This document shows, piece after piece, positions 31,236 to 56,629 of a stretch of DNA of 64,000 nucleotides. The DNA is taken from the NCBI GenBank assembly GCA_964599635.1, contig CAZRGM010000009.1, forward strand, positions 14,495-78,494, read 5' to 3'. Source of the stretch: an uncultured Eubacteriales bacterium. GTDB taxonomy: Bacteria; Acidobacteriota; Aminicenantia; Aminicenantales; Aminicenantaceae. Numbering within the stretch: the stretch's first letter is position 1; each line of letters opens with the position of its first letter. The notes below the pieces were generated by a model. The model saw only the letters and a list, made by a program, of their open reading frames with translations, was not told where the DNA came from and searched no databases. The position numbers and the translations under genes were made by a program.

Positions 31236-32084
31236 TCAATCTTCCAGTTTGGCTAGGAATATCCTCTTGATTCCAGCTAGATCCTTAATGATTTCAACAC
31301 GTTCCCATTTTTTGCTGAAAAAACTTTTGACTTTATTCTCCTGACCTTTTCCGATTTCAAAAAGCAGATATCCTTTGGGTTTCAAATATTCAGAAGCTTT
31401 CCGGACCAATTGATTTATAAATTCGGTTCCATCTCTTCCCGAAACAAGCGCCTCTTTAGGTTCATGATCTCTGATCTGGGGCTCAAGAGAAGACCACTCT
31501 CTTTGCGCAACATAAGGAGGATTTGAAACAATCAGTTCACATTTTTTTCTCAACACATTTTTTTTTAAAGCTCCAAACATATCCCCGACTATAAACCAAA
31601 CGTTTTGGATATGATGAAGAAAAGCATTCTTTTGAGCATAATAAACAGCTCTATCTGAAATGTCTAATCCCAATATTTTTGATCCAGGAAGTTCCCGGGC
31701 TAAAGACAAAGCAATGTTGCCGCATCCTGTTCCCATGTCCACAATAATCCCTTTGCTGCCAGAGTAAAGCTCAAGGACCTTTTCCACCAGAATTTCAGTC
31801 TCAGGTCTGGGAATCAAGACTCCTTCTCCCACTTTAAAGTCCATTGACCAAAATTCTTTCTCTCCTGTAATATAAGCTAGAGGCTTTCCTTTGACCCGCT
31901 TCTCCAGCATTCTGAAATATTCATTCTTTATTTCCTCAGAGACCTGAAAATTTGGTTCAGAAAAAAACCTTTCTTCAGAAACGCCTGCTGCTTTCAAAAG
32001 AATAACTTTGGCTTCTAAGGCTGGTTTGTCCAGTTCTTTTAAAAGAGAGATCCCCTTTTTGTGAAGCTCTCCAAGAGAACTCAT
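31236..32084 (-). CDS. prmC: Release-factor glutamine N5-methyltransferase
   Basis: 282 aa with DMGTGCGNIALSLA (SAM site) and IVSNPPY, located directly downstream of prfA. Confidence 0.9.
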   Translation of the reverse strand: MSSLGELHKKGISLLKELDKPALEAKVILLKAAGVSEERFFSEPNFQVSEEIKNEYFRMLEKRVKGKPLAYITGEKEFWSMDFKVGEGVLIPRPETEILVEKVLELYSGSKGIIVDMGTGCGNIALSLARELPGSKILGLDISDRAVYYAQKNAFLHHIQNVWFIVGDMFGALKKNVLRKKCELIVSNPPYVAQREWSSLEPQIRDHEPKEALVSGRDGTEFINQLVRKASEYLKPKGYLLFEIGKGQENKVKSFFSKKWERVEIIKDLAGIKRIFLAKLED

Positions 32085-32088
32085 TTGT

Positions 32089-33159
32089 TTAATTTGTCTC
32101 AGCCGTCATCTTCGCCTGAAAATGAAGGATCAATTTTTCTATGAACTCATCAAGGCTTCCATTCAGAACGCCTTCAATATCATAAACAGAAAGATTAAGC
32201 CTGTGGTCTGTCACCCGGGATTGAGGAAAATTATAAGTTCTTATTTTCTCACTGCGCTCTCCAGTCCCCACTTGAGACCTTCTATCCTTGGAGATCTTAT
32301 CTTTCTGTTCTCTTCTCGCTATATCCAGAAGCCGTGTTCGTAATATTTTTAGTGCCTTTTCTTTGTTTCTGTGCTGGGACTTCTCATCCTGGCAGGAAGC
32401 CACAAGCCCGGAAGGAATATGAGTCACCCTGATAGCGGTATAATTCCGGTTAACATTCTGCCCGCCTGGACCTGAGGCACCAAAAGCCTCGATTCTCATA
32501 TCTTTGGGATCAAGCTTCACATCGACATCATCTGCCTCAGGAAGGACCGCTACCGTTACTGTTGAGGTGTGAACCCTTCCGCTGGCTTCCGTTTCAGGGA
32601 CTCTCTGAACCCTATGCACCCCACTCTCATATTTTAACTGAGAATAAACTCGATCTCCCTTGATGCTGGCAATAATTTCTTTAAACCCATTTATGGTGGA
32701 TGAACTTGTGCTCAAAACTTCCAATTTCCATTTTTTTCTTTCAGCAAAACGGGAATACATCCGGAACAAATCCTGAGCAAAAAGAGAAGCCTCATCCCCC
32801 CCGGCTCCAGCCCTTATCTCTAAGAGAACATTTTTCTCATCGTTAGGATCTTTAGGTAGGAGTAAAACTCTGAGTTCCTCTTCCAGTTTTTTTTTCTTTT
32901 CTCTTAATTGATCAAGCTCTTCCCTGGCAAGCTCTTTTAAGTCTTCTTCTGAATCTGGATTGTTTAAGATCTCTTCAGAATCTTTAATCTCTTTCCTGGT
33001 TTTTTCATAATCCTGATATTTATGAACAATCGGCTCAATCTCAGCTCTTTCTTTAGAGGCTTTCTTTATTTTTTCAGGGTCAGAGATAAAATCTGGATCA
33101 GATAAAAAAGAGGTCAGCTGGTTATACCTCTCCCTTATGGATTCTAAATCTTGGAGCAT
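32089..33159 (-). CDS. prfA: Peptide chain release factor 1
   Basis: 356 aa with SGPGGQNVN (GGQ motif) and [26 protein letters not shown] (RF1-type block). Confidence 0.95.
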
Positions 33160-33162
33160 ATT

Positions 33163-33384
33163 TTATTTCTTATTTTTGTCCCGGGAAATCTTTCCATACT
33201 TCTTTTGGAACTTTTCAACTCTTCCCGCACTGTCCACAAATTTGTGTTTCCCGGTAAAAAAAGGATGGCACTGCGAACAAATTTCAACCCTTATTTCAGA
33301 CTTGGTGGAACGGGTTTTAAAAGTATTTCCGCACGCACAGGTGACCACACATTCTTTGTATTCTGGATGTATGTTCTTCTTCAT
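33163..33384 (-). CDS. rpmE: Ribosomal protein L31
   Basis: [46 protein letters not shown]... with the CxC...CxxC zinc ribbon. The tracked ORF is extended to 33411; the internal Met at 33384 fits the family N-terminus. Confidence 0.9.
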
Positions 33385-33413
33385 TTCTTCCTCTCTGTCT
33401 TTTGTAGGCAAAC

Positions 33414-33422
33414 ATTATAGCA
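33414..33422 (-). promoter_or_regulatory. Extended -10 promoter element upstream of rpmE
   Basis: The minus strand reads TGCTATAAT about 30 nt upstream of ATG 33384. No convincing -35. Confidence 0.3.
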
Positions 33423-33470
33423 AAAATAAAATAAGAATTCCAGAGCCCTGAAAGTTCTTTTCTTCCATAA

Positions 33471-33495
33471 TTTTTTTATGAATAGGTCAGGTTAA
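33471..33495 (-). repeat. Solo 25-mer identical to the left terminus of the family-2 element
   Basis: The minus strand reads TTAACCTGACCTATTCATAAAAAAA, the same as 41303-41327. A near-identical solo lies at 51438-51462. Confidence 0.7.
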
Positions 33496-33532
33496 TTAGA
33501 GGAACCGTTTTCTTTGCAGCCCTTCTGACTGA

Positions 33533-34387
33533 TTAAAGTCGTTCTCTTAGAGTCTCAACCGCACTTTTTGAAGGCAAAAAACCAAAATCATAAACAGGAA
33601 CTTTATGGACTGTATGGTCCAGTATATTTATGGCTGTCGGAATTGTCTCCGGCAGCCAGTTAAAGGTGCGGCTGTTGTGTATTAAAGAACGACTGGCTTG
33701 TTTCAAAGATAATCTTTTTATTTCGTTTTTAGATAAATGCCTGACTACACACACAGCAGCTAAAGGCCCTTTTCTTGGTTTGGGAGGACCTAAAGAACCA
33801 GGCCAGGGCGTAGCATGAACATAGATGTCCTCTTGACTTAATTGAAGATAAGGATTCTCATCGGTCAAATTTGTGTAACCCATCTCCACGGCTAATTTGC
33901 TGAAGGTTGTTTTCCCTGTGCCTGAATCACCCATTAAAAGGACATACTTATCTTCAATAACAACTAAGGCTCCGTGCATAAAGCAATATCTGTCTAAACT
34001 GGCCCTCCCCCAGAGTATGAGTTGTAGAGTTGGGACTCCATTAAAATTTATCCTGCCGCATCTCTGCTCGCTGATAGCCGCTTCATACGGAGACCAAAGC
34101 TTTATTTTGGTAAAATCACGATTGGTAAGAAATTGCCCTGTTCTGTAATGAAATAACATTTTTCCCTGGTATTTAGACATTTTGATAGAATCAACTTCCG
34201 GACTCTCTGAGCTTTTGACATGATCGGGAGACAAAGGATCAGATACAATTTCAATAACAGATTTTTTGGGGGAAGAAACAGGTGGATTCACCTGATAAGC
34301 CTCTAATTCCGGACTTAAGGGCATTTGAGTCCCTGAGGAAAATTTTAACTCAAAGATGATGCCGAGAATTTTAAGAAGATAGTCCAA
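33533..34387 (-). CDS. HPr kinase/phosphorylase C-terminal-domain-like P-loop protein (HprK-related kinase)
   Basis: 284 aa. The P-loop context VLLMGDSGTGKTTFSKLAVEMGYTNLTDENP parallels G-x-SG-x-GKS...L...G..LvaDD of the HprK C-domain. There is no HPr or PTS context. Confidence 0.6.
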   Translation of the reverse strand: MDYLLKILGIIFELKFSSGTQMPLSPELEAYQVNPPVSSPKKSVIEIVSDPLSPDHVKSSESPEVDSIKMSKYQGKMLFHYRTGQFLTNRDFTKIKLWSPYEAAISEQRCGRINFNGVPTLQLILWGRASLDRYCFMHGALVVIEDKYVLLMGDSGTGKTTFSKLAVEMGYTNLTDENPYLQLSQEDIYVHATPWPGSLGPPKPRKGPLAAVCVVRHLSKNEIKRLSLKQASRSLIHNSRTFNWLPETIPTAINILDHTVHKVPVYDFGFLPSKSAVETLRERL

Positions 34388-34499
34388 TAATTTTCAGACC
34401 TGACTTAATAATTAAAAAAAAAATTTAAATAAAGGGATTTTCTTATAAATAAAAAATTTGTGATTCTGGCTAAATAGAAATTATCTTCTCAGCAGCCTA

Positions 34500-34673
34500 T
34501 TAGCTGCAACTACCTGAGTTCCAACAGGCGTAAGCTTGGGTTTCTTTACAACCGCACGCACCTTGATTTTGAGGAGTACTATCGCTTCCGTAGCAAGCTG
34601 CCTGCATAACCTTATCAAATTTAAGGTCAACAACCTCTATTTTTGGATGGGCCCACTTCCTTTTTTCTTTCAC
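34500..34673 (-). CDS. Untracked 57-codon Cys-rich small ORF; candidate RiPP precursor peptide
   Basis: GTG start (34673-34671) overlaps the TGA stop of the SPASM gene as GTGA, with GGAG 7 nt upstream. Translation: MKEKRKWAHPKIEVVDLKFDKVMQAACYGSDSTPQNQGACGCKETQAYACWNSGSCS, stop TAA 34502-34500. Five Cys fall in the last 31 residues. It is below the 60-aa cut-off of the ORF track. Confidence 0.55.
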   Translation of the reverse strand: MKEKRKWAHPKIEVVDLKFDKVMQAACYGSDSTPQNQGACGCKETQAYACWNSGSCS

Positions 34674-35299
34674 GCTTTTCTCCTTAACGGTGATATTTTT
34701 GCATTAAAACCCTTAATTGTCAAGTTTTTTTTCATATCGTTTGTCCCATAAGCTTTAATCCGGGCTGAGGCTAACCGACACTTGTAAGGAACCGGTCCCG
34801 TAGGAGGACATCCTTCCAGAAGGGCAAAACCAACGCATTGACCGCAAATATTCGCGACCTCACACGTCTGGCAGGGACCTGGTTTCCAGGGTAGATTTTT
34901 AAGCATATCTGGAACAGCCCTATGCCATCCCTCTTGGATGCTTCCAGTCTTAAGATCATATTTTAAACTTTCAAGTAAAAGACATGGATGCAGATAACCG
35001 TAGGCATCAATATGAGACTCTCCATGTCCCACATTACATCGAAAAGGCGACTTTTTATTGGGGGGTAATGGAGTCCATTCTTTGAAAAGGTTTTTTAGCT
35101 GATCATTTCTGACTGGATCCTTTTTTCCCAATTCAACATATTCTTCAGGAGACAGCCTCAAAGACTGAGGACGATTCTTATACCCTTGGAAGCTCCCTAT
35201 TAGTTCAGCATCCCATCGGAACAAATCGCAGTATCTTAATGCCATATCCCGGACCTGCAAAAATTCATGAGCGTTTAAACGGCTGAACACTCCTTTCAT
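34670..35299 (-). CDS. SPASM-domain half of a radical SAM peptide maturase (separate ORF)
   Basis: 209 aa. It contains FRCNVGHGESHIDAYGYLHPC and CQTCEVANICGQCVG (the auxiliary Fe-S Cys motifs of SPASM/twitch domains). Its ATG overlaps the upstream ORF's stop as ATGA. Confidence 0.7.
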   Translation of the reverse strand: MKGVFSRLNAHEFLQVRDMALRYCDLFRWDAELIGSFQGYKNRPQSLRLSPEEYVELGKKDPVRNDQLKNLFKEWTPLPPNKKSPFRCNVGHGESHIDAYGYLHPCLLLESLKYDLKTGSIQEGWHRAVPDMLKNLPWKPGPCQTCEVANICGQCVGFALLEGCPPTGPVPYKCRLASARIKAYGTNDMKKNLTIKGFNAKISPLRRKA

Positions 35300-35796
35300 T
35301 CTAAAAGAATTTTTCTTTGGGCTAAAATATTAAGTGAATGCAGAACACGCTCTAACATTCCAGATCGGAGGGTCACTTTTCGGTATGTCTCCTCAGTTGA
35401 TCCGTATAAAGTGATGGAAACTTTCGCTGGCGTCCATTCCGAAAGAAAATCAGCTAATTCTTCATCGATAAGAGATCCGTTTGAAAAAAGAGTCACCAGG
35501 AATCCTTTCTTTTTAGCCGTGATCCAGAGTTTTCGGAAATTTTGATACAGCAAAGGCTCACCCCCCGTAAAGGTCAGATTGAGAACCCCTTCTTCTATGC
35601 ATTGATTTAAAATATCATCCCACTGCTCTAAACTAAGTTCATACTCTTTTTTGGGGCTTTTTTCAGGAATAGCGCAAAAGCAATGCGGACATTTAAAATT
35701 GCATCTCCGGGTTAGTTCAATGGTCAAGCTGTGCAGAGGTCGAGTTCTTTGACTGCTGATCTCTTCATAAAATTTTTCAGCTTTACAAAGTTCCAT
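35296..35796 (-). CDS. Radical SAM core half (CxxxCxxC) of a peptide maturase
   Basis: 166 aa with TRRCNFKCPHCFC (CX3CX2C) and TFTGGEPLL. It ends in the middle of the usual TIM-barrel fold. Confidence 0.75.
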   Translation of the reverse strand: MELCKAEKFYEEISSQRTRPLHSLTIELTRRCNFKCPHCFCAIPEKSPKKEYELSLEQWDDILNQCIEEGVLNLTFTGGEPLLYQNFRKLWITAKKKGFLVTLFSNGSLIDEELADFLSEWTPAKVSITLYGSTEETYRKVTLRSGMLERVLHSLNILAQRKILLE

Positions 35797-35807
35797 AAAA
35801 TTACCTT

Positions 35808-36161
35808 CTATGAGGAATAAATAAATTCCAGGGTGATAAGATCCTCCAGAAAATGATTCACATCTTTTTGAATGATCTCTGGATCCTCATTGAACTCTTC
35901 GGTCAACAAACTCAGCAAAGATTCTCTGGACCGGGGTGTTTCCAATTTTTTCCATATAAAGGCTCCTATCTCATTGAGTCTATATATTTTCTGGATCTCT
36001 AAACCCGTCTGATTTATGGGTATTAAGACTATCTCACCGCCTATCTGGCGAGTCACAACTTTATCATTTCTTTTAAAAATTTCTTGTTTTTTTATCATTT
36101 TTTTATGTCTAATCCAGTCTAAAAATTTATCTATTTTTATTGATAAAATATCATAAACCAA
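35808..36161 (-). CDS. PqqD-family protein (RiPP recognition element-like)
   Basis: 117 aa; an internal start MIKKQEIF... at about 36098 is possible. VVTRQIGGEIVLIP...IYRLNEIGAFIWKKLETPRSRESLLSLLTEEFNEDPEIIQKDVNHFLEDLITLEFI matches the PqqD beta-strand plus winged-helix pattern. Confidence 0.7.
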   Translation of the reverse strand: MVYDILSIKIDKFLDWIRHKKMIKKQEIFKRNDKVVTRQIGGEIVLIPINQTGLEIQKIYRLNEIGAFIWKKLETPRSRESLLSLLTEEFNEDPEIIQKDVNHFLEDLITLEFIYSS

Positions 36162-36199
36162 TAATATATTATTTCAACTGATTGAGCTAACAAATCACC

Positions 36200-37039
36200 T
36201 CAGATCCTTTCTGCTTTTTCCTTCATCTTCCTTCTAAAACAGTCCCAATCCACAGAAAAACTGAATTTTCCTTTAGCTTCCCTGACTTCCTTTTTGTAAC
36301 TTTTAGAATCAAAAAAATCTTCCAGTTTGCTGTCAACAGGCAGAAGCATTTCCTCAGCTTCCCATTTGTAAACCTTTCCCTCTCTGCCCCTCAAACACTC
36401 CAGATGAACAATCCACGCCAGCTCTTTAAATGTCATTTTTTTAAAAGTCTTTCTTATGACCTCGACCTCTGATTTTTTCTGAGGAGAAATAAAATTGAAA
36501 TATCTAGAAAAAAGTAGCGCATTATGAAAATAAGCCGGATAAGCAACGATTCCCTGATCTTTATTCAATTTAGCAAGATAGATGAATAAATCCACCACTT
36601 TTTTCCCCAAGCTCAATCCCGGATACTTCTGACCAGGAAGAGGGGTTCTCTTCCCGTTAAATTTTAACCGGGGATTCTGAAGGGTCAGCCATTCCAAAAC
36701 TAAAAATCGAGATTGATGCATCTTTAAAGGAAAATCTCTTTTGGTCTCGAAAATTCCCTCTCTAATTTTAAGATCAACAATGATATTTTCTGGATCTCTC
36801 TTTTTATAATATATGATCAATCTCTGTAAGGGAGGATATTGAGAGGAGTCCAGTTCATATTCAATGGGCCATAAACCTCTTTTTTTCGCCTCTCTATAAA
36901 AATTTCTTTTTCTTAAAACGACTTCAGCCTCTCTCATTGTGTATTTGCCCAGGAAAAGAGAAGTCCCTTTGGCCCCAGACATATCCTGAAAAATATCTCC
37001 TTTTTCAATAAGAGGAGTCGTCCTTGACTTCTTTTTCAT
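36200..37039 (-). CDS. Hypothetical protein (279 aa), no recognisable motif
   Basis: A long ORF in an operon-like position between rsmD and the PqqD gene. No family recognised by eye. Confidence 0.5.
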   Translation of the reverse strand: MKKKSRTTPLIEKGDIFQDMSGAKGTSLFLGKYTMREAEVVLRKRNFYREAKKRGLWPIEYELDSSQYPPLQRLIIYYKKRDPENIIVDLKIREGIFETKRDFPLKMHQSRFLVLEWLTLQNPRLKFNGKRTPLPGQKYPGLSLGKKVVDLFIYLAKLNKDQGIVAYPAYFHNALLFSRYFNFISPQKKSEVEVIRKTFKKMTFKELAWIVHLECLRGREGKVYKWEAEEMLLPVDSKLEDFFDSKSYKKEVREAKGKFSFSVDWDCFRRKMKEKAERI

Positions 37040-37100
37040 TTTCCCATTCCCTATTTTTCACGTCTCGCTTTTCTCGCTCTTTCTATTCACAATTTACTAT
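37040..37100. repeat. Intergenic low-complexity repeat (TTCTCGCTCTTTCTATTCAC / CGTCTCGCTTTTCTCGC type)
   Basis: TTCCCATTCCCTATTTTTCACGTCTCGCTTTTCTCGCTCTTTCTATTCACAATTTAC has near-copies at 49050-49086 and at 52700-52770 and 52855-52905. Confidence 0.6.
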
Positions 37101-37649
37101 TTATTCATATCCATAAAACTTCAGCACATCATCCGCCACTCTCATTTCTCTTTTTAATTCAAAATATTTAGATTCAAATCTGGTTTTATAATGATGTCTC
37201 AAAACAATGATCCCTCCCTGACTCAGCAAGTCTCTCTTATAAAGAACTTTTAAAGGGTCCCTCTCACCCACCATTAAATACGGAGGGTCCAGAAATATCA
37301 GGTCAAAGATTTTCTTTTCCTTTGACAGCATGATGACAGCCCGATTGAACTCTTTATGGACAACCCGGGTTGAATCTTCAGCATCACACCTCCTGATATT
37401 GGTCTTTATGGCTTTGATAGCCGGATAATAATCATCTACAAAGGTAACTTCCTTAGCTCCTCGGCTTAAAGCTTCAATTCCTAAGGACCCGGTTCCAGCA
37501 AAGCCATCCAGAACAGAAATATCTGGAATATCCAAATGCACTATATTAAATAACACCTCCTTGAGTTTATGAGGTATCGGCCTGACTTTTTCATCCCGCA
37601 CATGTCTAAGGCGCTTTCCTTTGTATTTTCCGCTTATAACCCGAATCAT
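37101..37649 (-). CDS. rsmD: 16S rRNA (guanine966-N2)-methyltransferase
   Basis: 182 aa with RVISGKYKGKRL, DGFAGTGSLGIEALSRGA and IFLDPPY. Confidence 0.85.
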   Translation of the reverse strand: MIRVISGKYKGKRLRHVRDEKVRPIPHKLKEVLFNIVHLDIPDISVLDGFAGTGSLGIEALSRGAKEVTFVDDYYPAIKAIKTNIRRCDAEDSTRVVHKEFNRAVIMLSKEKKIFDLIFLDPPYLMVGERDPLKVLYKRDLLSQGGIIVLRHHYKTRFESKYFELKREMRVADDVLKFYGYE

Positions 37650-37673
37650 TTTATCATGGTTTATTCATAAAAT

Positions 37674-37793
37674 CAGTCTGCAACCTCTTCTCACATCTCC
37701 TGATTATTTGTCTTTTCATTTATTGTCATTATATCAAGTTTATTCCTTTATTCTTATTTTGATTTCTTTTTCTTTGCAGACTGCAACCTCTTT
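37674..37793 (-). promoter_or_regulatory. Extended -10 promoter candidate flanked by two 17-nt direct repeats
   Basis: CAGTCTGCAACCTCTTC (37674-37690) and CAGACTGCAACCTCTTT (37777-37793) flank the minus-strand TGATATAAT (37736-37728). The upstream copy forms the palindrome TTGCAGtCTGCAA. Confidence 0.3.
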
Positions 37794-38382
37794 AATAATA
37801 AAATATGGCTTTCCCACTTTCCGTGCGGACATCTTTGATTCCATAGGGAAGTTCATACCAATCATTTAAAGTCGTATTTTCAGTTCCTTTGAATTTGGAT
37901 GCTAAATAAATCACAGTATCCAGCAGCACAGAGTCAACAGGTTCTTTATTCAGAAAAAGCTCTTGAATCACTAACCGGGCAGCGCCTTGTTTGACTTTAA
38001 GAATTCCATTAAAATAAAAGACCATTTTAGGGTTGAGCAGCAAAGGAAGATTTTGACCTTTGAATTGAAGCAGAACCTTTCCCTCAATTCTATTTTTATC
38101 AAATAACTTCAATTTCAGCTCTTTCATCACATCTTCCTCTTGTTCAATCCTAAAAGCCAGATAGGAGTTAAGCTCGCTTTCACTGACCTTGACTTCCCGT
38201 AACGGACCGGAATACTCGTTTTCCGCCTCTGATTGAACCTTTTCAATAAGCTCCAGAACTCTTAACACCTCATCAAGAGAATAATCGCTCTGAGCCAAGC
38301 TGATTTGTGGAACCATGAGGTTCAATATGAAACAGCAAACAGCCATTAAAGCATATAAGTGTCTAAAAAAATGGTTCATCAT
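37792..38382 (-). CDS. Hypothetical secreted protein (196 aa)
   Basis: N-terminal signal-like segment LYALMAVCCFILNLMVPQISLAQS. No family recognised. Confidence 0.5.
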   Translation of the reverse strand: MMNHFFRHLYALMAVCCFILNLMVPQISLAQSDYSLDEVLRVLELIEKVQSEAENEYSGPLREVKVSESELNSYLAFRIEQEEDVMKELKLKLFDKNRIEGKVLLQFKGQNLPLLLNPKMVFYFNGILKVKQGAARLVIQELFLNKEPVDSVLLDTVIYLASKFKGTENTTLNDWYELPYGIKDVRTESGKAIFYY

Positions 38383-38420
38383 TCACTATCCCCTATTGAC
38401 CATTCACAATTCACCATTCT
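38383..38420. repeat. Heptamer array filling the whole intergenic spacer
   Basis: The minus-strand sense reads GAGAATG GTGAATT GTGAATG GTCAATA GGGGATA GTGAATG and runs directly into ATG 38382. Confidence 0.7.
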
Positions 38421-39242
38421 CTAATAATGAGTCAGAGTACCATCTTTTTTTGCTTTCTTCAATGCCAAACGGAACAAGGTGATACTTAAGGGGAAAAGAA
38501 TCACGGCAAATATGAGTAAAGCCATGATATCTGGAAAAATCTCAGAAAAGGATGCTGAAGTAATCATGCTTTTCCTCAGCCCTTCTAAAGAATAAGTAAT
38601 AGGAAGAAGATAAGATATCCATTTGATCCATGGAGGAAGGACCTGGATAGGAAAAAACACCCCACCCAGCAAGCCGGAAACACTTCCATAGATCCACGAA
38701 AAAGGATTCCCTTTTTTATAAACCAGAATAAAGCAGGCTGATAATATTCCGATACTTAAAAAGCATAATGCGGTTAAAATAAAAGTTATGATAGCACCCG
38801 GCCAGTTAATCTTTTCTATCTGCATTCCAAAAACCCATACAGCCAGAATGATTTGAAACACGGTGGAAACCACAGAAAAGAGAAAATAATACAAAGAAGA
38901 TCCAAATAAAATCACAGGGAGACTGGTTCTGGAGACCAAAATCGCCTCCAAAGTCCCGGTAACCTGAGCCTGCCGAATTATGGCTGGAAGATGCTCCTGG
39001 AACACAGCCAGAAGGCCTGAAAAGGCAATCCCTATGATCACAAAAGAAAAATAATCCCCTCCATAAGCATCCAGAACAGAAGAACTGTTCGGTGATATTA
39101 ATTTCGAAATAAAGAAAAAGGTGGCAGAAGAGAGGAAAATTCCGATAAAAGAGGCAATAAATGAAAATTTATAGCTGGCCTCCTCTAAAAAATCCCGCTT
39201 TAAAAAGGCATAAAGCTTCTCTATGAGCGCCACTGAAATCAT
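38421..39242 (-). CDS. ABC-2 type transporter permease
   Basis: 273 aa with about 6 predicted TM helices. Its start overlaps the stop of the ATPase gene by 4 nt. Confidence 0.7.
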   Translation of the reverse strand: MISVALIEKLYAFLKRDFLEEASYKFSFIASFIGIFLSSATFFFISKLISPNSSSVLDAYGGDYFSFVIIGIAFSGLLAVFQEHLPAIIRQAQVTGTLEAILVSRTSLPVILFGSSLYYFLFSVVSTVFQIILAVWVFGMQIEKINWPGAIITFILTALCFLSIGILSACFILVYKKGNPFSWIYGSVSGLLGGVFFPIQVLPPWIKWISYLLPITYSLEGLRKSMITSASFSEIFPDIMALLIFAVILFPLSITLFRLALKKAKKDGTLTHY

Positions 39243-40063
39243 CTCCCAAAACTTTCATGGTCTGCTGCAGCCTTTTTGACCGCTTTTTCATAGACCTGGT
39301 GTAGAGAATTTTTCCCTTGTTCTGTCAAGCTGGATACCGATCCTTGAGCCATGACCTGTCCCTCTACAATAATGGCTAAAGTGTGTGCAAAGTCCTGGGC
39401 TTCTTTCAGGTCATGAGTGGCCCAGAATACCGTCTTGCCTTGATTTTCAACCATCTCTTTTCTCAAAAACTTTCTTATGTTTTGGGCAGCTAGTGGATCC
39501 AAACTTCTCGTGGGTTCGTCAACAAATAAAATCTCTGGGTCTGTGAGGAGGGCTCTTGCAATGGCCATCATTTGCCTCATACCTGTGGAATAAGTATTGA
39601 ACCTTTGCTCAGCAGCTTTTTTCATTCCCACAAGATCTAAAACTTCCTGAATAATCTTCCTTCTTTTTGATGAAGGTATACTATTCAAAGCCGCAAAAAA
39701 ATCCAGATTCTGCAGACCCGTCAGCCTCCAATAAAAACTTCTCTCCTCACTTAAGGCAAAACCAATGTGTTTTTTGACCTCATCTGTTTCATGCTCCAAG
39801 TCACAGCCTTTGATGAAAACTTTTCCCTCATCAGGCAGCACAAGGGTTGAAAGAATCTTAATGAGAGTGGTCTTCCCGGCTCCATTAGGACCCATTAAAC
39901 AAAAGCACTGACCCGATTCCACTTCTAAATCCACCCCTCTTAAAGCTGTGGTCCATTTCCTTGCTAAAGGATGGAACAAAAGCTCTCTGTAACCTTTGAC
40001 CACAGGATAGACTTTTTTGAGAGATCTTACTTCTACAGCCTTCATCTTCTTATCCTGTCTCAA
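39239..40063 (-). CDS. ABC transporter ATP-binding protein
   Basis: Walker A GPNGAGKTT, signature-like YSTGMRQMMAIA, and Walker B ILFVDEPTRSLD. The start is probably MKAVEVRSL at 40045. Confidence 0.85.
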   Translation of the reverse strand: MRQDKKMKAVEVRSLKKVYPVVKGYRELLFHPLARKWTTALRGVDLEVESGQCFCLMGPNGAGKTTLIKILSTLVLPDEGKVFIKGCDLEHETDEVKKHIGFALSEERSFYWRLTGLQNLDFFAALNSIPSSKRRKIIQEVLDLVGMKKAAEQRFNTYSTGMRQMMAIARALLTDPEILFVDEPTRSLDPLAAQNIRKFLRKEMVENQGKTVFWATHDLKEAQDFAHTLAIIVEGQVMAQGSVSSLTEQGKNSLHQVYEKAVKKAAADHESFGR

Positions 40064-41225
40064 TCAATCTTCTAAAAATAAGATATAGGGGTCTCCAGAA
40101 ACGCCATAGATAATGAAGCCCCATTTTATACGAATGGGGAGAAATCCCATAATAAAAAGAGACCCAGGAACGGGGGGGAAAGAAAAAATTATAGAGTGCT
40201 TGAATAAATGGGCCTATTCTTCTCCTGTTCAGCACTGAAAAAAAAGTAGGAGCATGCATGGGAAACAGAAGCTTCTGTTGTCTGGACTTCACCAAATCTT
40301 GAGGCCAAAAAAAATGAAGCAGTCTTAGGTTCAGAGAAGAAATAGAAAATCGGCTTATGATATTCTCTGAAACTGTATTGGGCCAAAATTCATTCACCAG
40401 ATGCAGCCCATAGTAAACAGACGCTTCTATTTTCTCTCTCCTGCATATATCCAAGACCTTATTCCAGTTCAATTTATAGATAGAAATCATTTCTGCTATG
40501 TCTGTAAACCAATCCAACCGAGAATAAGAATGCTGCTGGGAATGAAGACAAAGAAGGCAAAGCTCATATTCAGGCGAAAGAATCTGAGCCGGAGAACCCT
40601 CTATGTCAATTTTCTGTATGCTTCTCCAAAGATCCTCCCTCATTGAAAACGGCATATGAAGACCCGGAAAATTATAATGAAGTTCCAGCTCAAGCTTTCC
40701 TTTTCTGTAGACAGGGCGGTAGGTCCAAAATATTTTCTCCCGCTCACTCAATTCACGACTGATATGCTCACCGGCTGCCTGAACAAAACCCAATCCTCGG
40801 AGTAATTCTTGAAATTCAGTTCTTTGGGAAGAATCAAGAAAAAGATCAACATCAATAAAAAATCTCAACCCAATATCTTTATAAAGCGTTTTTGCCAGCC
40901 TGGGCCCCTTCACTAACGCCACCCTCATTCCTGAATTCTCGATAGAATCCAGAACTGGTTTCAGCGCGTTGAGAAGATATAGATTCCGACCAAAATTTGT
41001 TATGTATATTCGATTGAGCTGACTGACAATCTCATCCGGAACTTTGTCTTCATACACCTTCAGATTTCGGTATAAAAGAGGGGAAACATTTTCTTTCTGA
41101 GCTCTTTTCAGAAGCTCATGCCAGTCCAAATCTTTATTTAATATTTGCTTGAATTCAGACTTTTGACTTGGATTCAGTTTGATCCTTGAGCCTAAAATAA
41201 GAAGCTTGACTTCAGGAGATAACAT
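40050..41225 (-). CDS. Uncharacterised nucleotidyltransferase family protein (NTP_transf_5-like)
   Basis: 391 aa. KENVSPLLYRNLK, FIDVDLFLD and HSQQHSY... fit the PF14907-type pattern as I remember it. Confidence 0.55.
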   Translation of the reverse strand: MLSPEVKLLILGSRIKLNPSQKSEFKQILNKDLDWHELLKRAQKENVSPLLYRNLKVYEDKVPDEIVSQLNRIYITNFGRNLYLLNALKPVLDSIENSGMRVALVKGPRLAKTLYKDIGLRFFIDVDLFLDSSQRTEFQELLRGLGFVQAAGEHISRELSEREKIFWTYRPVYRKGKLELELHYNFPGLHMPFSMREDLWRSIQKIDIEGSPAQILSPEYELCLLCLHSQQHSYSRLDWFTDIAEMISIYKLNWNKVLDICRREKIEASVYYGLHLVNEFWPNTVSENIISRFSISSLNLRLLHFFWPQDLVKSRQQKLLFPMHAPTFFSVLNRRRIGPFIQALYNFFFPPRSWVSFYYGISPHSYKMGLHYLWRFWRPLYLIFRRLIETG

Positions 41226-41302
41226 TCGTGCTCAAATTAGTAAAATAATGAATAATGAATGGTAAATTGTGAATGGATTTCTAGCGTTTTAGAACGTTTA
41301 AT

Positions 41303-41562
41303 TTAACCTGACCTATTCATAAAAAAATGGCGATGTTTTCATAATTCATTTATTCTCAACGATATACAGGACTTTTTCAAGAACAATTTCTTGAACATTT
41401 TTTCTGTTTGTATTTTAATTTTAATCGCCATTTTTTTACCTTAAAGGCGAGCCGATCTCACGGCATCTTCTTCGTACCAGGGCATTCGTAGTGAAGTACC
41501 ACGACTTCATGCCCCGTGCCTCGCATCTGCAGCAATCTCGGCTCGTGAATAATCCAGGTTTA
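41303..41562 (+). repeat. Family-2 foldback element, copy B (~260 nt)
   Basis: Collinear with copy A, with the same AAAAAAATGGCGAT / ATCGCCATTTTTTT pair and the same GGCGAGCCGATCT...CCAGGTT right arm. ORF 41491-41709 is in a different frame from the copy-A ORF, so the element is non-coding. Confidence 0.7.
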
Positions 41563-41579
41563 AATCAAATGATTAGATC

Positions 41580-42398
41580 TTATTTCCTTATAGGTGACAC
41601 ATCATCTGGTTCATCATCAGGCTCATTGAGAGTGACCCCCCCTATGACTAAAGCAAGTCCCACAGGAATCAAAAATATAGGGACAAGTCCTTTTCTTTTC
41701 ACCAGATAAACCAAGTCTCCGGGAGCCACATCTTCTTCCATATAGATAGCGACAATCTGTCCTTCTGTGGCTTTCTTAATGGGCTCGTCATTCAGGGTCA
41801 GAATTTTAACATATTGATAGAAATCAGTTTCAGGTTCATCCTCGTCAGGTGTTAGGATATGTATCTCATCATCTTTCCACAGCTCTATTTCTTCATCTTC
41901 TTCCTCATAGGTCATAATCTCTACGGTGGCTATCTGGGTATTTGGTTCATAAGAAATAACCAGGCCTACTAATTTTTCTCCCTCGTCGTTTCTAGCCTCA
42001 AACTTCTGTCCTGCCGCCTCTTGGCTTCCCTTGGTAAAAGTCTTCAGGGTTACAGATATTTTTCCTGTCTTTCCTGATCGGATCCCCACCAAATTTTCTG
42101 CGTTGTACCCACCATTCTCAGATTCAACCCCCAAGATATAAAGGCCTTTCTCTATTTTCTCGACTTTAAACACTCCATGATCGTCAGTTCCGGTGCTTTG
42201 ATAAACGTCACCCGATGAAACATTCCTGAGAGTGACTAAGGCTCCTTTAACAGGAGTTGTCCCGTCCTCACTAAAAATGAATCCCGTTAGGCTTCCTGTT
42301 TCTGGGCTCCCCGCTTTGGCTATATTGGGAAGGTACAAAACAACAAGAGATAAACACAATAGGATTGATGTTAATTTTTTATAGGCGCCTCTATTCAT
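41580..42398 (-). CDS. Secreted carboxypeptidase-regulatory-like (CarboxypepD_reg) domain protein with a C-terminal TM segment
   Basis: 272 aa with a signal peptide. GSLTGFIFSEDGTTPVKGALVTLRNVSSGDVYQSTGTDDHGVFKVEKIEKGLYILGVE is a typical CarboxypepD_reg fold signature. The C-terminal LVPIFLIPVGLALVIGGVTL is followed by an acidic tail. Confidence 0.6.
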   Translation of the reverse strand: MNRGAYKKLTSILLCLSLVVLYLPNIAKAGSPETGSLTGFIFSEDGTTPVKGALVTLRNVSSGDVYQSTGTDDHGVFKVEKIEKGLYILGVESENGGYNAENLVGIRSGKTGKISVTLKTFTKGSQEAAGQKFEARNDEGEKLVGLVISYEPNTQIATVEIMTYEEEDEEIELWKDDEIHILTPDEDEPETDFYQYVKILTLNDEPIKKATEGQIVAIYMEEDVAPGDLVYLVKRKGLVPIFLIPVGLALVIGGVTLNEPDDEPDDVSPIRK

Positions 42399-42420
42399 AT
42401 TTCCTCCTTAAGGTATATTT

Positions 42421-42449
42421 AATATAGACATAACAAATGTATTTGTCAA
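42421..42449 (-). promoter_or_regulatory. Strong sigma70-like promoter for gene 41580-42398
   Basis: The minus strand reads TTGACA (42449-42444), a 17-nt spacer, TATATT (42426-42421). AGGAGG follows 4 nt before ATG 42398. Confidence 0.5.
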
Positions 42450-42522
42450 TAAATTTTTTACATATTACCCATATATTCTCTATGACTTATAAGCCTACTA
42501 TGCCCATTAATCAGCCACCGTT

Positions 42523-44199
42523 TTATCCATTGTCTTTAACTATCCTCACAATTTCAATTTCTCTATTAATGGGTTTCAGCTCTAGAATATTTTCCCCTCT
42601 TTTGGTCATAAGTTCCAATCCTGAAATGCGGCCCTCATGGGCAACCTGTTCATCAATGACTCTCCCATTCAAAAAAACAGCCAACAAAGGACTCACCGAA
42701 TCTTTTTTCAGTTCAATATTGATAAAAATAGGTGACTCTTCAGCAAATAAAAGAGGAACTCCGTAGGTCTCCCCTTTTTTTATCTTTTTATGGCCAAATG
42801 ACATTATCTCCGGCATCAAAACTTTAGAAAGCCTCTCATCAATCTCTTTAATTTTTTCGATATCATTAAGACGCTCATAATTCTTATGCATTCTCAACAG
42901 GATCTCCACATTTTGAGGATCTCTATCCAGTGCTTTTCTATAAAAATCACCCGCATCATAAACAAAGTCTACAGCCTGATAAGAATCACCCACTATTTGC
43001 AAAAGTTTTACCAAATCGTCATGAGATCCAAAATCTCCGGAAAATAGAAGGCTCTCTACTTTGTCTCTTTGCTGAATGACTTCTCTGTATCGATGCTGTT
43101 TGAAATCAAATACGATACTGAAATAAAGGCGGGAAAAACTCTCGCTTCCTCCGGGTATGACTTCAAGTAAATTTCGGCCCCTCAAAAATCCTTCTAACTC
43201 CTCGATCTCCGCATCTTCATTTTCCATCTCTAAGTAAGTTTTGAGATGATTCTCCGCACCCTTCAATCCTTCAGACCTCTGAATTTCTAATTTTATCAGT
43301 CCCAAAAGAACTGATTTTTTGGTTTCGATAAGCTCTTTCTCCTCTATTAATTTTTCTCCGGTTAGGGATTGATAAAATTTTATATGGTTGAGCTGTCTCA
43401 AGCTGGATGAAAGATGACTTAAAGCATTTTTCATATGATAAATTCTGGCTTCATCCTGACCTTTATGGTAAAGATCTCTGGCTCTTTCATACTCCATGCT
43501 TTCAGCTTTTGAAAGCTTATCCAGCCTTTCACTCAGGTTGAGAGATCTTCCTCCTAAAAAATCAGCATACAGGCGAAATGCTTCAGCTTCTCGAGGAAGG
43601 ATCTGATTCATAACGGAATAGTCTTCAACATAAACCGCCCACACATGCATCACATCCATTAATCCCTGTCTTCCTTTGGCATCAATAACATCTTTCATCA
43701 TCTTGACAACATACTTTTTATCTTCTCCCTTTAATTCTTCCCAATTCTGCATCATTATCTTTCCTATCTCAAAATAAGCCTCTTCATCAAATGTGGTCAA
43801 AAGGGCCGCCTTTTTATACTGGTCATAATAATCGATCTCAACAGGTTGAAAATAATTCATATAAGAAAGTGCCTGGGCAAGGCGAAAATGAGCCGCATAG
43901 GACCCTGGATTTAAGCGGACTGCCTGAATAAAATTCTGTATCGATGTATTCAGATTCTCGTTTCCTTGGGGCCCATTTCCAGCATCCTTCACTCCTCTTT
44001 CGAAATAAGTCTTTCCCAGTTCATAATACACTTTATCATTGAAAGGATTTAACTGCTGAGACTTCTTGAGAATAAAGATCCTTTTTTCTGAATCAAGAGT
44101 CCTTTCCCCTTTATAATAGAGATGCACACTCCAGTACATATAGAAATTGATCGCCATCAGAAGCAAAATCCCAACGATTAAAGCCGTTTTTTTTTGCAT
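42523..44199 (-). CDS. Membrane-anchored TPR-repeat protein
   Basis: 558 aa with an N-terminal TM helix and repeated TPR-like 34-mers (YYELGKTYFERG, AHFRLAQALSYMNY, GDFYRKALDRDPQN). Confidence 0.6.
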   Translation of the reverse strand: MQKKTALIVGILLLMAINFYMYWSVHLYYKGERTLDSEKRIFILKKSQQLNPFNDKVYYELGKTYFERGVKDAGNGPQGNENLNTSIQNFIQAVRLNPGSYAAHFRLAQALSYMNYFQPVEIDYYDQYKKAALLTTFDEEAYFEIGKIMMQNWEELKGEDKKYVVKMMKDVIDAKGRQGLMDVMHVWAVYVEDYSVMNQILPREAEAFRLYADFLGGRSLNLSERLDKLSKAESMEYERARDLYHKGQDEARIYHMKNALSHLSSSLRQLNHIKFYQSLTGEKLIEEKELIETKKSVLLGLIKLEIQRSEGLKGAENHLKTYLEMENEDAEIEELEGFLRGRNLLEVIPGGSESFSRLYFSIVFDFKQHRYREVIQQRDKVESLLFSGDFGSHDDLVKLLQIVGDSYQAVDFVYDAGDFYRKALDRDPQNVEILLRMHKNYERLNDIEKIKEIDERLSKVLMPEIMSFGHKKIKKGETYGVPLLFAEESPIFINIELKKDSVSPLLAVFLNGRVIDEQVAHEGRISGLELMTKRGENILELKPINREIEIVRIVKDNG

Positions 44200-44243
44200 A
44201 ACTTTTTCTTATTTTAAAATATCTGCAATCCTTTTCTCTTCAG

Positions 44244-44314
44244 CTCTTTAGAGGAGAGCGAAGCCCGAACGGGAGAGAGACTCCTCGATGGGGAATCGAA
44301 CGGGTGACGAATCC
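44244..44314. repeat. Family-1 internal segment (fragment)
   Basis: CTCTTTAGAGGAGAGCGAAGCCCGAACGGGAGAGAGACTCCTCGATGGGGAATCGAACGGGTGACGAATCC differs at 5 of 72 positions from 19119-19190. Confidence 0.65.
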
Positions 44315-44380
44315 TCTGTTTTTTCCCCTTTAAATTTTTTGTGGAGCGCAAACCATGCCTATATTTCATAAAAATCATCT

Positions 44381-45862
44381 TTATTTCCGATTCAGCACCC
44401 AACACAGCGATACAATCACTGTAAAAAGAACCATATTAGCCGGGATATGAAGATTAAAATCTGTAAAGGAGTGAACGGCGATCACCGCTAAAGACACAAA
44501 ACATCCCATACTCAATCCCTTAATCCAGAGGTCGGCTCTTTTTTTCCAGCGAGAAAAAGACCAAAACACCAAGGAGAGTATCCCCCCTGCGAGAAAACAA
44601 AATCCGATCAACCCCAATTCAGATAAATATTCCAAATAATCATTATGGGCATGCCTTAGAAACCCATATAACCCAATAGATTCATAAGCAGGGTAAACAG
44701 CAGAGAATGTTCCCAATCCTGTCCCAAAAACAGGGAAATCCCGGACCATTTCCATTGTGTTCGCCCAGTACTGAGGCCTCTGGCCTCCGGGAAGCCCCTC
44801 TTTGGCAAATCTCTCCATAGTGGCATCAATACCTGCATAGATAACAAACAGTATGATAAAAATAAACAAAATCTGGAGAAATTTCCTTAATCCGGTTCTG
44901 GATACAGGTCCTTCTCGGAAATAGAACACAGACAAGTGAAAAAATACAAGAATCATCACGATAAGAGAAAGCAAAGCTGAGCGGGAGCGTGATAAAATAA
45001 GACCCACTGTCAAGAAAATCACCAATGCTCCCAGAACCAAATTCAGCGCAAATCTTTTTTCTCCAAAAAGAGCCATCTTTTCTTTAAATATCTTCCCAGC
45101 CTTTAACATCAAATCCATTCTCGAAATGATCAGTCCTATGACCAAGGGAATGATCATCTCCAGATAGCCCGTGAAGTGATTCTGGTTTACAAAAGTCCCG
45201 GTCACCGCATGAAGACTAATCTCTTTTTTATAAAAAAGGATCCGAGGGTTATCCCGATATAACTCGAACATTCCATAAAAAGCCTCAAAAAAACCCATAG
45301 CTAAAATCACATAAAAAATACGTTTGATTTGAGTCCTTTTGACTACATTCTTTATAACCAGAAATCCCAAAATCACGTAAGCCAAAAGTTCCATCCCTTC
45401 CTGAAAGGTTTGAAAAGGAAATAACGAAAGGCTCATAAATTTTTCCCCTTGAACTCCCAGAGAAAATATCTCTCGAAAATGGTAAGTTTCCGGGCTTATT
45501 ATTTTGGCCAGAAATGCAGGAAGAGGGATCATCTGAAAAATCAAATATAAGAAAAAACCACCAAAAAAATATTGAATTCGCTTTCTAACCAACGGCTGTC
45601 CGAGAGGAAGGATAGGCTTGTACTTCATCAACACATAGGCTCCCAGCATCACGAAAACAGCCATTTCTATGACCAGAATGCTCCATTCATAAACAGAAGC
45701 CGCAGCCAGAGGAGAAAAAATGAGTACCCCCAAAATCCCATATTCAATAATTTTGGAACAGACTCGGTCCATTTTTGTGCCTAAAAACCCAACAGCTTTT
45801 TTAGATTTTTTTTCTAGCCGTGGTTTGATCCAGACATTATCTGCTGGCGTGAATCTGATCAT
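44381..45862 (-). CDS. O-antigen ligase/polymerase-like (Wzy_C family) membrane protein
   Basis: 493 aa, polytopic, with SRSRSALLSL and HAHNDYLEYLSELGLIG. Confidence 0.7.
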   Translation of the reverse strand: MIRFTPADNVWIKPRLEKKSKKAVGFLGTKMDRVCSKIIEYGILGVLIFSPLAAASVYEWSILVIEMAVFVMLGAYVLMKYKPILPLGQPLVRKRIQYFFGGFFLYLIFQMIPLPAFLAKIISPETYHFREIFSLGVQGEKFMSLSLFPFQTFQEGMELLAYVILGFLVIKNVVKRTQIKRIFYVILAMGFFEAFYGMFELYRDNPRILFYKKEISLHAVTGTFVNQNHFTGYLEMIIPLVIGLIISRMDLMLKAGKIFKEKMALFGEKRFALNLVLGALVIFLTVGLILSRSRSALLSLIVMILVFFHLSVFYFREGPVSRTGLRKFLQILFIFIILFVIYAGIDATMERFAKEGLPGGQRPQYWANTMEMVRDFPVFGTGLGTFSAVYPAYESIGLYGFLRHAHNDYLEYLSELGLIGFCFLAGGILSLVFWSFSRWKKRADLWIKGLSMGCFVSLAVIAVHSFTDFNLHIPANMVLFTVIVSLCWVLNRK

Positions 45863-46668: not shown

Positions 46669-46724
46669 AACTCACGATTCTCCATTTTCTATCTTCCATT
46701 CACAATTCCCCATCCCCTATTCAC
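46669..46724. repeat. Heptamer array (8 units) filling the spacer and covering the upstream gene's stop codon
   Basis: The plus strand reads AACTCAC GATTCTC CATTTTC TATCTTC CATTCAC AATTCCC CATCCCC TATTCAC. Confidence 0.7.
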
Positions 46725-48991: not shown

Positions 48992-49014
48992 TTTTTTTAC
49001 TCTTTTTTTAATTT

Positions 49015-49086: not shown

Positions 49087-49090
49087 TTTA

Positions 49091-49933: not shown

Positions 49934-49956
49934 CCCGCTATCCTTATATCTAATCA

Positions 49957-56628: not shown

Positions 56629-56629
56629 T

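Follow-up and report, generated by a model that had tools for sequence, protein, structure and literature searches.

We analyzed a 64,000-nucleotide stretch of DNA from an uncultured bacterium (GenBank assembly GCA_964599635.1, contig CAZRGM010000009.1), referred to here as the window. An earlier note had read eleven genes at 33533-41225 as a single candidate pathway for a peptide that is made by the ribosome and modified after translation (RiPP). Our results indicate that the functional unit is not this eleven-gene string but a 2.7-kb module at 33533-36161, which encodes a PqqD protein, a radical S-adenosylmethionine (rSAM) maturase with a SPASM domain, a 57-codon peptide and a kinase with a predicted HPr kinase (HPrK) fold. 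This core module is part of a large family that spans at least 15 phyla and for which we found no experimental characterization, and it is likely to be a self-contained RiPP-type biosynthetic module. Among RiPP systems that depend on rSAM enzymes, it represents a widespread and apparently undescribed variant, of which the copy in the window may not function. The features of the core module are as follows:

33533-36161, minus strand: core module of PqqD protein, rSAM/SPASM maturase, 57-codon peptide and HPrK-fold kinase, 2.7 kb
33533-34387, minus strand: P-loop kinase, predicted HPr kinase/PEPCK fold, 'ScmC-like', from profile and fold matches
34500-34673, minus strand: putative 57-amino-acid precursor peptide, from homologues, a Shine-Dalgarno sequence and a leader motif
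34670-35299, minus strand: C-terminal 209 residues of the maturase, comprising the barrel end, bridging region and 7-Cys SPASM domain
35296-35299, minus strand: ATGA stop/start overlap within the maturase gene, 1-nt deletion
35296-35796, minus strand: N-terminal 166 residues of the rSAM enzyme with CX3CX2C motif (C32/C36/C39); PF04055, 82.7 bits against a cut-off of 29.5
35808-36161, minus strand: PqqD-family protein, presumed RiPP recognition element; PF05402, 60.4 bits against 23.4
36150-36177, minus strand: promoter-like TTGAAA-16-TATGAT, just 3' of the stop codon of a 279-residue protein gene

We found all 11 listed open reading frames (ORFs) of 33533-41225 on the minus strand at the coordinates given. 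Most of their domain calls were borne out by Pfam and NCBIfam searches, with the SPASM and kinase calls needing the extra support described below.

We next consider how widely the module occurs. Related loci (numbered with the prefix L) were collected by aligning the maturase to species-representative genomes. This returned at least 80 species-level genomes with rSAM-linked loci at 26-39% maturase identity; 80 such distant loci and four closer ones make up the 84 related loci used here. The distant loci belong to Chloroflexota, Desulfobacterota, Omnitrophota, Nitrospirota, Verrucomicrobiota, Acidobacteriota/Aminicenantes, Myxococcota, Planctomycetota, Bacillota, Bacteroidota/Chlorobi, Actinomycetota, Elusimicrobia and others, at least 15 bacterial phyla in all, and one comes from a Methanomicrobiales archaeon. 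Using the window together with the three loci nearest to it, we built component hidden Markov models (HMMs) and ran them over all 84 loci. PqqD was found in 74/84, the HPrK-like kinase in 72/84, a short S24/S26-type peptidase in 53/84, and the NTP_transf_5 nucleotidyltransferase and the ABC (ATP-binding cassette) ATPase in 28/84 each, all of them values conditioned on the rSAM gene, through which the loci were retrieved. The core genes are thus co-conserved, and in the close relatives L001, L003 and L004 the order PqqD-rSAM-peptide-kinase is kept. Rather than a one-off, the module is a member of a very widespread family.

Gene fusions provide a second line of evidence. Seventeen loci carry the kinase domain as a C-terminal fusion to an rSAM/SPASM protein (L014, L022, L026, L027, L033, L042, L047, L050, L051, L063, L065, L066, L069, L073, L076, L077 and L081). 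Four other proteins join the S24-like peptidase to NTP_transf_5 (L008:3892-5973, L011:12132-13742, L015:3845-6070 and L049:11267-13066). These fusions indicate, at the level of gene structure, that the cassette parts are tied together. The rSAM-kinase fusion ORFs reach ~740 residues, most being 650-740, and usually lie in multi-rSAM cassettes with a PqqD gene and, directly after it, an S24-like peptidase gene.

The 57-codon ORF is a genuine and conserved precursor gene. Its GTG start overlaps the maturase stop codon and is preceded, 6 nt ahead, by an AAGGAG Shine-Dalgarno sequence. The encoded peptide has the leader W7-A-H-P10-K-I12, which is of the YxxPxL type recognized in lasso peptide biosynthesis (PMC10368454), cysteines at C27, C40 and C50, and a C-terminal Ser57; C42 and C56 are lineage-specific. 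In L001, L003 (two copies) and L004, the maturase gene is likewise followed by a small ORF whose leader is homologous. Over 51 aligned codons, the window gene and its L001 orthologue differ by 14 synonymous and 12 non-synonymous changes, a ratio that indicates purifying selection on the peptide gene. Homologues are found at this place in many genomes, beside homologous maturases.

We then searched a precursor HMM over 85 sources (the 84 related loci plus the window) and recovered 70 small ORFs in 60/85. The leader consensus across the family is K-K-[YW]-x-K-P-x-L. Across 60 members of the precursor family there is no variation at P10 and C27 and at least 90% conservation at C40 and C50. The spacing from the motif to the first Cys is 15 or 16 in 54/57 peptides (15 in the window), a Lys follows the first Cys in 44/57, and the final Cys is 5 or 6 residues from the C-terminus in 41/57. 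The cores are rich in Gly, Ser, Thr and Asn, contain two further conserved Cys, giving a modal count of three, and are hypervariable except at the Cys positions and the final Ser. Of the unique peptides, 59/69 end in Ser compared with a control ORF background of 9-11%, a statistic with a small bias from HMM seeds that mostly ended in Ser. The resulting signature, YxxPxL-(15 or 16 residues)-C-K...C...C-x5-S, could serve genome-mining tools.

Several loci carry more than one precursor. The tandem genes L003:11125-11277 and L003:11507-11674 have near-identical leaders and different cores, and multiple precursors also occur in L041, L042, L014, L063 and L073.

No named model fits the precursor. 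The window peptide had no NCBIfam or Pfam match even at E<=10, which includes the paeninodin family model NF033524, and its relatives gave weak leader matches only. NF033524 matched 7/60 relatives with E values of 0.02-1 and scores no higher than 13.8 bits, the cut-off being 27, and the StsA sactipeptide model matched 3/60 leaders weakly. For one family among 18,950, these leader matches are far above chance, and all are sub-threshold. We also attempted to predict where the leader is cleaved, by signal-peptidase (-3,-1) rules or by lasso spacing, and the results disagreed across the family. An attenuator or terminator after the peptide gene found no support: the 118-nt spacer folds no better than shuffled sequences (z=0.0). 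A promoter-like TTGACA-17-(TG)AAAAAT lies at 34695-34723 on the minus strand, inside the 3' end of the maturase gene and just upstream of where the precursor begins. A separate precursor transcript could arise from this site, which is statistically indistinguishable from chance.

The rSAM and SPASM ORFs had been listed as a pair of genes. However, each of the 21 homologues in the alignment is one polypeptide of 361-376 residues, the best of them (79% identical) from a Candidatus Aminicenantes metagenome-assembled genome (MAG). When concatenated, the two window ORFs align to them without a gap, '...KILLE*' plus 'MKGVF...' against '...KIILEVKGVF...'. The one-piece homologues and the gap-free joint alignment indicate that the two ORFs are one gene broken by a 1-nt deletion, not two designed genes. 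The deletion falls in a Val codon (GAA GTN AAA to GAA TGA AA), which creates the ATGA overlap. It costs no residue and changes Val to Met at the junction. Within the gene, the break falls in the rSAM barrel (Pfam profile position 140/166), and the first ORF matches PF04055 over profile positions 1-140/166 only.

Neither half looks degraded. The CNFKCPHC motif (C32/C36/C39) is invariant across 22 aligned sequences, as are the SPASM cysteines C254, C272, C309, C312, C318, C321 and C340, whose spacing is CX2CX5CX2C plus three more Cys and not CX2CX5CX3C. For the window SPASM ORF, the model TIGR04085 fell just short of its cut-off (24.2 against 27) and a Pfam search gave no PF13186 match. The nearest relatives with solved structures are SkfB (1e-29), PqqE (4e-23), SuiB and CteB. 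These are peptide maturases and not sulfatase maturases. None of the three outcomes that the earlier note had named as refuting (lack of co-conservation, no conserved small ORF beside homologous maturases, and a cofactor- or sulfatase-type function unrelated to peptides) was therefore seen.

A sequencing error was rejected as the cause of the split. The identical split is present in three independent assemblies (JGI 3300077564 and JGI 3300001533, both metagenomes, and the sequence read archive run SRR2989655), and the 166-residue product is present on seven contigs. Programmed frameshifting was also rejected, as the junction CTT TTA GAA TGA contains no X XXY YYZ slippery heptamer. Termination-reinitiation at the ATGA would be a simpler route to the second half. 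The maturase here is either a functional enzyme in two pieces or a pseudogene of very recent origin. It offers a natural experiment on whether an rSAM/SPASM enzyme can work as two polypeptides.

We therefore weighed the possibility that the cassette is a recently inactivated remnant, in which the deletion kills the maturase and no modified peptide is made. The uniformly one-piece homologues and a break within the barrel instead of at the rSAM/SPASM boundary favor inactivation. In addition, comparison over 3.5 kb shows no difference among the assemblies with the split, and a fourth assembly has 1 differing position in 20.9 kb, so the lesion could be very young. On the other hand, the deletion removes no residue, and the halves could be translated in a coupled way across the ATGA overlap. 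The peptide, PqqD and kinase genes are intact. We found no second lesion and no excess of substitutions at conserved columns, the single deviation being common to the window maturase and its intact relative. Taken together, inactivation is a serious possibility that we rate at somewhat less than even.

The PqqD protein is presumed to act as a leader-binding RiPP recognition element. Its best NCBIfam match is the lasso PqqD chaperone NF033536, at a sub-threshold score. Its true start is probably the ATG at 36098, giving 96 residues. The TTG at 36161 lies inside the promoter-like site, and other assemblies call a 96-residue protein.

The kinase was harder to place. As a single sequence it gave a weak Pfam match (E=9e-4), did not reach the PF07475 cut-off (19.3 against 33.3) and had no match to TIGR00679, so by these cut-offs it is not a bona fide HPr(Ser) kinase. 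A profile of the 34-member kinase family, in contrast, matches HPrK/P in the PDB (3.5e-7 over 60 residues). The AlphaFold2 model has a mean predicted local distance difference test score of 89.9, and its best PDB folds in Foldseek are HPrK/P and ATP-PEPCK (E~1e-6, probability 1.0). The protein has a beta-rich N-terminal domain and a Walker A motif, GDSGTGKT, and retains His138 and TDE(175-177); H138, G158 and K159 are invariant in the family. These results support a predicted HPrK/PEPCK P-loop fold. A precomputed Pfam assignment lists the protein as PF27840.1 ScmC, flagged 'weak'; our local Pfam copy gave no such match. Searched against clusters at 50% identity, the kinase profile matched 15,218 at E<=1e-3, 7,541 at E<=1e-10, a count that covers the whole HPrK-like peptide-kinase clan and not this cassette only, and 57 at E<=1e-30, which represent the small full-length subfamily of the window kinase.

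The limits of the module are set by a syntenic genome that lacks it. Positions 1-11124 of L092 (GCA_014727835.1) are syntenic with window 31236-45862, minus exactly the PqqD-rSAM-peptide-kinase block, in the order Wzy-TPR-CarboxypepD_reg-NTP_transf_5-ABC-ABC2-196aa-rsmD-279aa-rpmE-prfA-prmC. Since the cassette is missing from an otherwise conserved neighborhood, these data indicate that the core is a 2.7-kb insertion/deletion module with the backbone genes outside it. By its sequence, the module probably has its own promoter. The TTGAAA-16-TATGAT ahead of PqqD has 10/12 consensus matches, and its TTGAAA is kept at the same place in L001. Promoter and terminator scans were not enriched overall over shuffles, and we treat the site at 36150-36177 as a tentative candidate for the start of the cassette's own transcription unit. 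Recent horizontal insertion received no support from base composition, with a GC content of 0.392 in the cassette against 0.390 and 0.403 in the flanks. The genes around the core are as follows:

between the PqqD and ABC-2 permease genes, minus strand: 279-residue protein, rsmD and 196-residue secreted protein
38421-39242, minus strand: ABC-2 permease of a candidate exporter; ABC2_membrane, 63.5 bits; 4-nt overlap with the ATPase gene
39239-40063, minus strand: DrrA-like ABC ATPase, candidate exporter part; ABC_tran, 107 bits
40050-41225, minus strand: NTP_transf_5 (PF14907) nucleotidyltransferase; 156.8 bits against a cut-off of 31.2, profile positions 2-248/249
44381-62832, minus strand: Wzx/Wzy locus genes, namely Bac_transf+VanZ, FAD oxidoreductase, Wza (Poly_export/SLBB) and Wzc (Wzz/GNVR/AAA_31)
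44381-62832, minus strand: further Wzx/Wzy locus genes, namely CpsB phosphatase, two Wzy_C, Wzx flippase, glycosyltransferases, methyltransferases and DUF6625
63161-63679, minus strand: S24/S26-type serine peptidase, 172 residues; PF00717, 26.5 bits against 23.3

Whether the NTP_transf_5, ABC-2 and S24-like genes serve the core module is ambiguous. The window NTP_transf_5 is 28% identical to the peptidase-NTP_transf_5 fusion of L011, and a search of solved structures with it gave nothing significant. It is a probable accessory tailoring enzyme, with an uncertain link to the cassette in this genome. Close relatives of the ATPase-permease pair adjoin the cassette in L008, L015 and L028, with permease matches of 5e-56, 2e-54 and 1e-17, respectively. 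The same NTP_transf_5 and ABC-2 subfamilies adjoin, or are fused into, related cassettes of Omnitrophota and Myxococcota. The S24-like peptidase is the first gene of a ~30-kb minus-strand string. Its motifs GFSMQP (SM.P), VHR and GDN, read from the sequence, resemble those of endoplasmic reticulum (ER)/archaeal signal peptidases. It did not reach the TIGR02228 cut-off (42.5 against 51.85), matched the cassette-derived HMM with E=2e-15 and shares 36% identity with the L003 peptidase encoded after the kinase. We consider it a candidate leader peptidase, and its assignment to the cassette here is inferred. Overall, a link between the core module and the accessory genes at 38421-41225 and 63161-63679 is plausible.

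The alternative is that all three belong to the adjacent Wzx/Wzy locus and have no relation to the peptide. That polysaccharide locus is complete and lies between the S24-like peptidase and the rest of the cassette, so the three bracket it, and L092 keeps the Wzy-TPR-NTP_transf_5-ABC-ABC2 order without the cassette. However, the same three families occur beside or fused within related cassettes in distant phyla. Exopolysaccharide (EPS)-type genes also flank a notable minority of related cassettes, including L001, L003 and L004 and ~17/82 distant loci in a low-sensitivity phmmer test, and the two systems may be linked. On this evidence we find an exclusive role in polysaccharide synthesis conceivable and somewhat doubtful. 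Within the EPS locus, GC content dips to 0.295 at 58001-60000, compared with ~0.40 for the window, across Methyltransf_21, the Wzx flippase gene (3' part) and a glycosyltransferase gene (5' part), a pattern often seen in horizontally exchanged O-antigen/EPS genes.

The remaining flanking genes are a different matter. The 279-residue protein has more than 740 homologues, and all organism-named ones are from Aminicenantes. Among the 85 sources, its HMM and that of the 196-residue protein match nothing beyond the window and L001, and L092 has positional counterparts. In the complete genome L091, the 279-residue gene lies upstream of rpmE-prfA with no cassette. RsmD was called by TIGR00095 at 133 bits against an equivalog cut-off of 117.5, and the window, L001 and L092 share a conserved rpmE promoter (TCTGGAAT...TATAAT). 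These data indicate that rsmD, the 279-residue gene and the 196-residue gene are part of a conserved Aminicenantes backbone. We had considered the 279-residue protein as a novel tailoring enzyme and rejected it as an Aminicenantes-wide conserved hypothetical that occurs without the cassette.

It is accordingly very unlikely that all eleven genes at 33533-41225 form one dedicated pathway, as the earlier note proposed: they are contiguous on one strand, and NTP_transf_5 and ABC-2 relatives adjoin related cassettes elsewhere, but L092 keeps the whole flank without the core, the 279-residue gene sits upstream of rpmE-prfA without the cassette in both neighborhoods examined, the HMMs of the 279- and 196-residue proteins match in just two of the 85 sources, RsmD is a housekeeping rRNA methyltransferase, and a conserved promoter-like site precedes PqqD.

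We compared the module with known systems. The most extensive likeness is to paeninodin/pseudomycoidin lasso peptide clusters. Shared elements are a discrete PqqD, best matched in the window by a lasso PqqD model, a YxxPxL leader, an HPrK-fold kinase, a PF14907 nucleotidyltransferase, a precursor C-terminal Ser and a nearby ABC exporter. In lasso clusters, HPr-kinase homologues act on the precursor by phosphorylation (PMC8498205). In paeninodin-type clusters, the residue is the C-terminal Ser. In the pseudomycoidin cluster, a nucleotidyltransferase adds hexoses to the phosphate, and nucleotidyltransferase-B2 protease fusions occur (PMC8498205), which are paralleled by the S24-NTP_transf_5 fusions of related cassettes. 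The differences are equally clear. Lasso clusters have a cyclase and a B2 protease, whereas an rSAM/SPASM enzyme and an S24/S26 serine peptidase are found here in their place. Cassette cores lack the ring-forming Gly1...Asp/Glu pattern of lasso peptides and have three conserved Cys instead. Consistent with the earlier note, no Asn-synthetase-like cyclase or transglutaminase-like B2 protease was found among Pfam annotations over window 23.5-64 kb. Its pairing of a RiPP maturase set with lasso-type tailoring enzymes was likewise upheld by the discrete PqqD, the rSAM/SPASM maturase and the conserved Cys-containing precursor, and the YxxPxL leader and C-terminal Ser add support.

Among named neighborhoods, SynChlorMet (SCM) is closest, with GeoRSP and HprK-rel-A further away, and none reaches its cut-off. 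The SynChlorMet cassette was defined by comparative genomics. It resembles the module in linking kinase-fold, PqqD and rSAM/SPASM proteins (ScmC TIGR04249, ScmD TIGR04248, ScmE TIGR04250, ScmF TIGR04251), and ScmC is the model matched by the largest number of kinase family members (27/34). In contrast, the window kinase has no ScmC match at E<=0.001. Scores were 33.1 against 100 for ScmD, 53.5 against 400 for ScmE with the window N-terminal half (79-97 for full-length homologues) and 50-75 against 400 for ScmF. SynChlorMet also has two rSAM/SPASM paralogues, ScmE and ScmF, whereas the window has one maturase gene, split. Locus L039 (a Chlorobiaceae MAG) carries at 786-13886 a double cassette resembling the SynChlorMet layout: NTP_transf_5, precursor, kinase, rSAM, PqqD, S24 and rSAM, then precursor, kinase, rSAM, rSAM and ABC. 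Its rSAM proteins score far too low for ScmE/F, and neither ScmC nor ScmD was matched by its kinase-like and PqqD proteins.

HprK-related kinase A/B and GeoRSP systems are similar in combining HPrK-like and PqqD-like proteins in conserved neighborhoods of unknown function. The HprK_rel_B model matches 26/34 family kinases and HprK_rel_A 20/34. However, the window scored 15.9 against 200 for HprK_rel_A, 52.2 against 400 for the GeoRSP rSAM and 24.4 against 100 for the GeoRSP PqqD, and it belongs to neither, which settles a membership that had been left open. Sactipeptide and ranthipeptide systems (SkfB, CteB, AlbA, PapB, StsB) share a 7-Cys SPASM rSAM enzyme and a small Cys-containing precursor. 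In those systems the recognition element is fused N-terminally, whereas here it is a separate protein with a linked kinase, nucleotidyltransferase and S24-like peptidase. Their cut-offs were not reached (SkfB ~70 against 300, PapB ~65 against 340, StsB ~60-90 against 625; SkfB, AlbA, PapB and StsB models all 60-91 bits against 300-850). Membership in SCM, GeoRSP, HprK-rel-A/B, mycofactocin, pyrroloquinoline quinone (PQQ), SkfB, PapB, StsB and AlbA systems was rejected, as all scores were sub-threshold. Full-text literature searches, with subscription-only papers outside their coverage, returned no description of the rSAM/kinase cassette or of SynChlorMet.

By analogy with these systems, the best reading of the module is a hybrid that follows lasso-type logic in its leader, chaperone, kinase and nucleotidyltransferase and uses an rSAM/SPASM enzyme for the cyclase and an S24/S26 peptidase for the B2 protease. 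PqqD would bind the 57-residue precursor through the lasso-type leader WxxPxI (YxxPxL class) and present it to the rSAM/SPASM enzyme, which would modify the Gly/Ser/Thr/Cys-rich core. The likeliest chemistry is the formation of thioether cross-links from C27, C40 and C50, a suggestion we make tentatively, at slightly less than even confidence. The HPrK-fold kinase would phosphorylate a precursor Ser, and on balance we favor the C-terminal Ser57 as its target, as in paeninodin-type lasso peptides. The PF14907 nucleotidyltransferase might decorate the phosphate as in pseudomycoidin, the S24/S26 protease might remove the leader, and the ABC-2 system would export the product. The idea of an uncharacterized, cross-linked and possibly phosphorylated or nucleotidylated exported peptide put forward in the earlier note thus survives in its core, and its delimitation of the locus does not.

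Several points weigh against the hybrid reading, besides the retrieval of loci through rSAM and the seed bias mentioned above. The precursors of the closest relatives L001, L003 and L004 do not end in Ser, suggesting that C-terminal phosphorylation is not universal in the window's subfamily. At least one lasso kinase acts on Ser3 instead of the C-terminal Ser. For both reasons, the site of phosphorylation is uncertain. L092 has NTP_transf_5, the ABC genes and the 196-residue gene but no core cassette, and the S24-like peptidase sits 22 kb away at the head of the EPS locus. All of these genes may therefore serve polysaccharide biosynthesis here. The type of cross-link, the phosphorylation site, leader cleavage and export are all proposed by analogy. 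Finally, every assembly of this population carries the frameshift in the maturase gene, and the pathway may be dead here.

A different product, a peptide-derived redox cofactor or intracellular factor made in the manner of PQQ or mycofactocin, is improbable: the discrete PqqD and rSAM/SPASM enzyme (as in PqqD/PqqE and MftB/MftC), the strongly conserved C-terminal residue of the precursor (as in MftA) and the presence of MftC and PqqE among the best sub-threshold NCBIfam matches of full-length homologues speak for it, but those scores are far under cut-off (88-105 against 265 and 82-92 against 381), no dehydrogenases or downstream cofactor-processing enzymes are linked, a kinase is present, the hypervariable cores are typical of natural products and not cofactors, several loci have multiple different precursors, and the family repeatedly includes an exporter and a signal-peptidase-like protease.

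In its broadest form, the hybrid reading would make the family an unrecognized, phylum-spanning RiPP class that combines a lasso front end, rSAM/SPASM cross-linking and an ER-type signal-peptidase-like protease. Its products would be small, Cys-cross-linked peptides with a C-terminal phospho-Ser or phosphoglycosyl-Ser. We advance this proposal cautiously, as one that is nearly as probable as its opposite. If the chemistry holds, the family is a large untapped source of modified peptides. One set of leader, chaperone, kinase and nucleotidyltransferase appears to serve two unrelated core chemistries, that of the lasso cyclase and that of radical SAM. More speculatively, because the cassette recurs beside Wzx/Wzy polysaccharide loci, a phosphoglycosylated peptide might be tied to capsule or EPS as a signal, anchor or primer.

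We also observed features elsewhere in the window. An IS200/IS605-type Y1 transposase (PF01797) is encoded at 25327-25989 on the plus strand, next to a GAF-GGDEF-PilZ protein at 26129-28201 on the same strand, and both are found at the same position in L001 and L092. A short plus-strand ORF at 4150-4353 matches the HMM of the 196-residue protein (E=8e-9) and may be a paralogue fragment.

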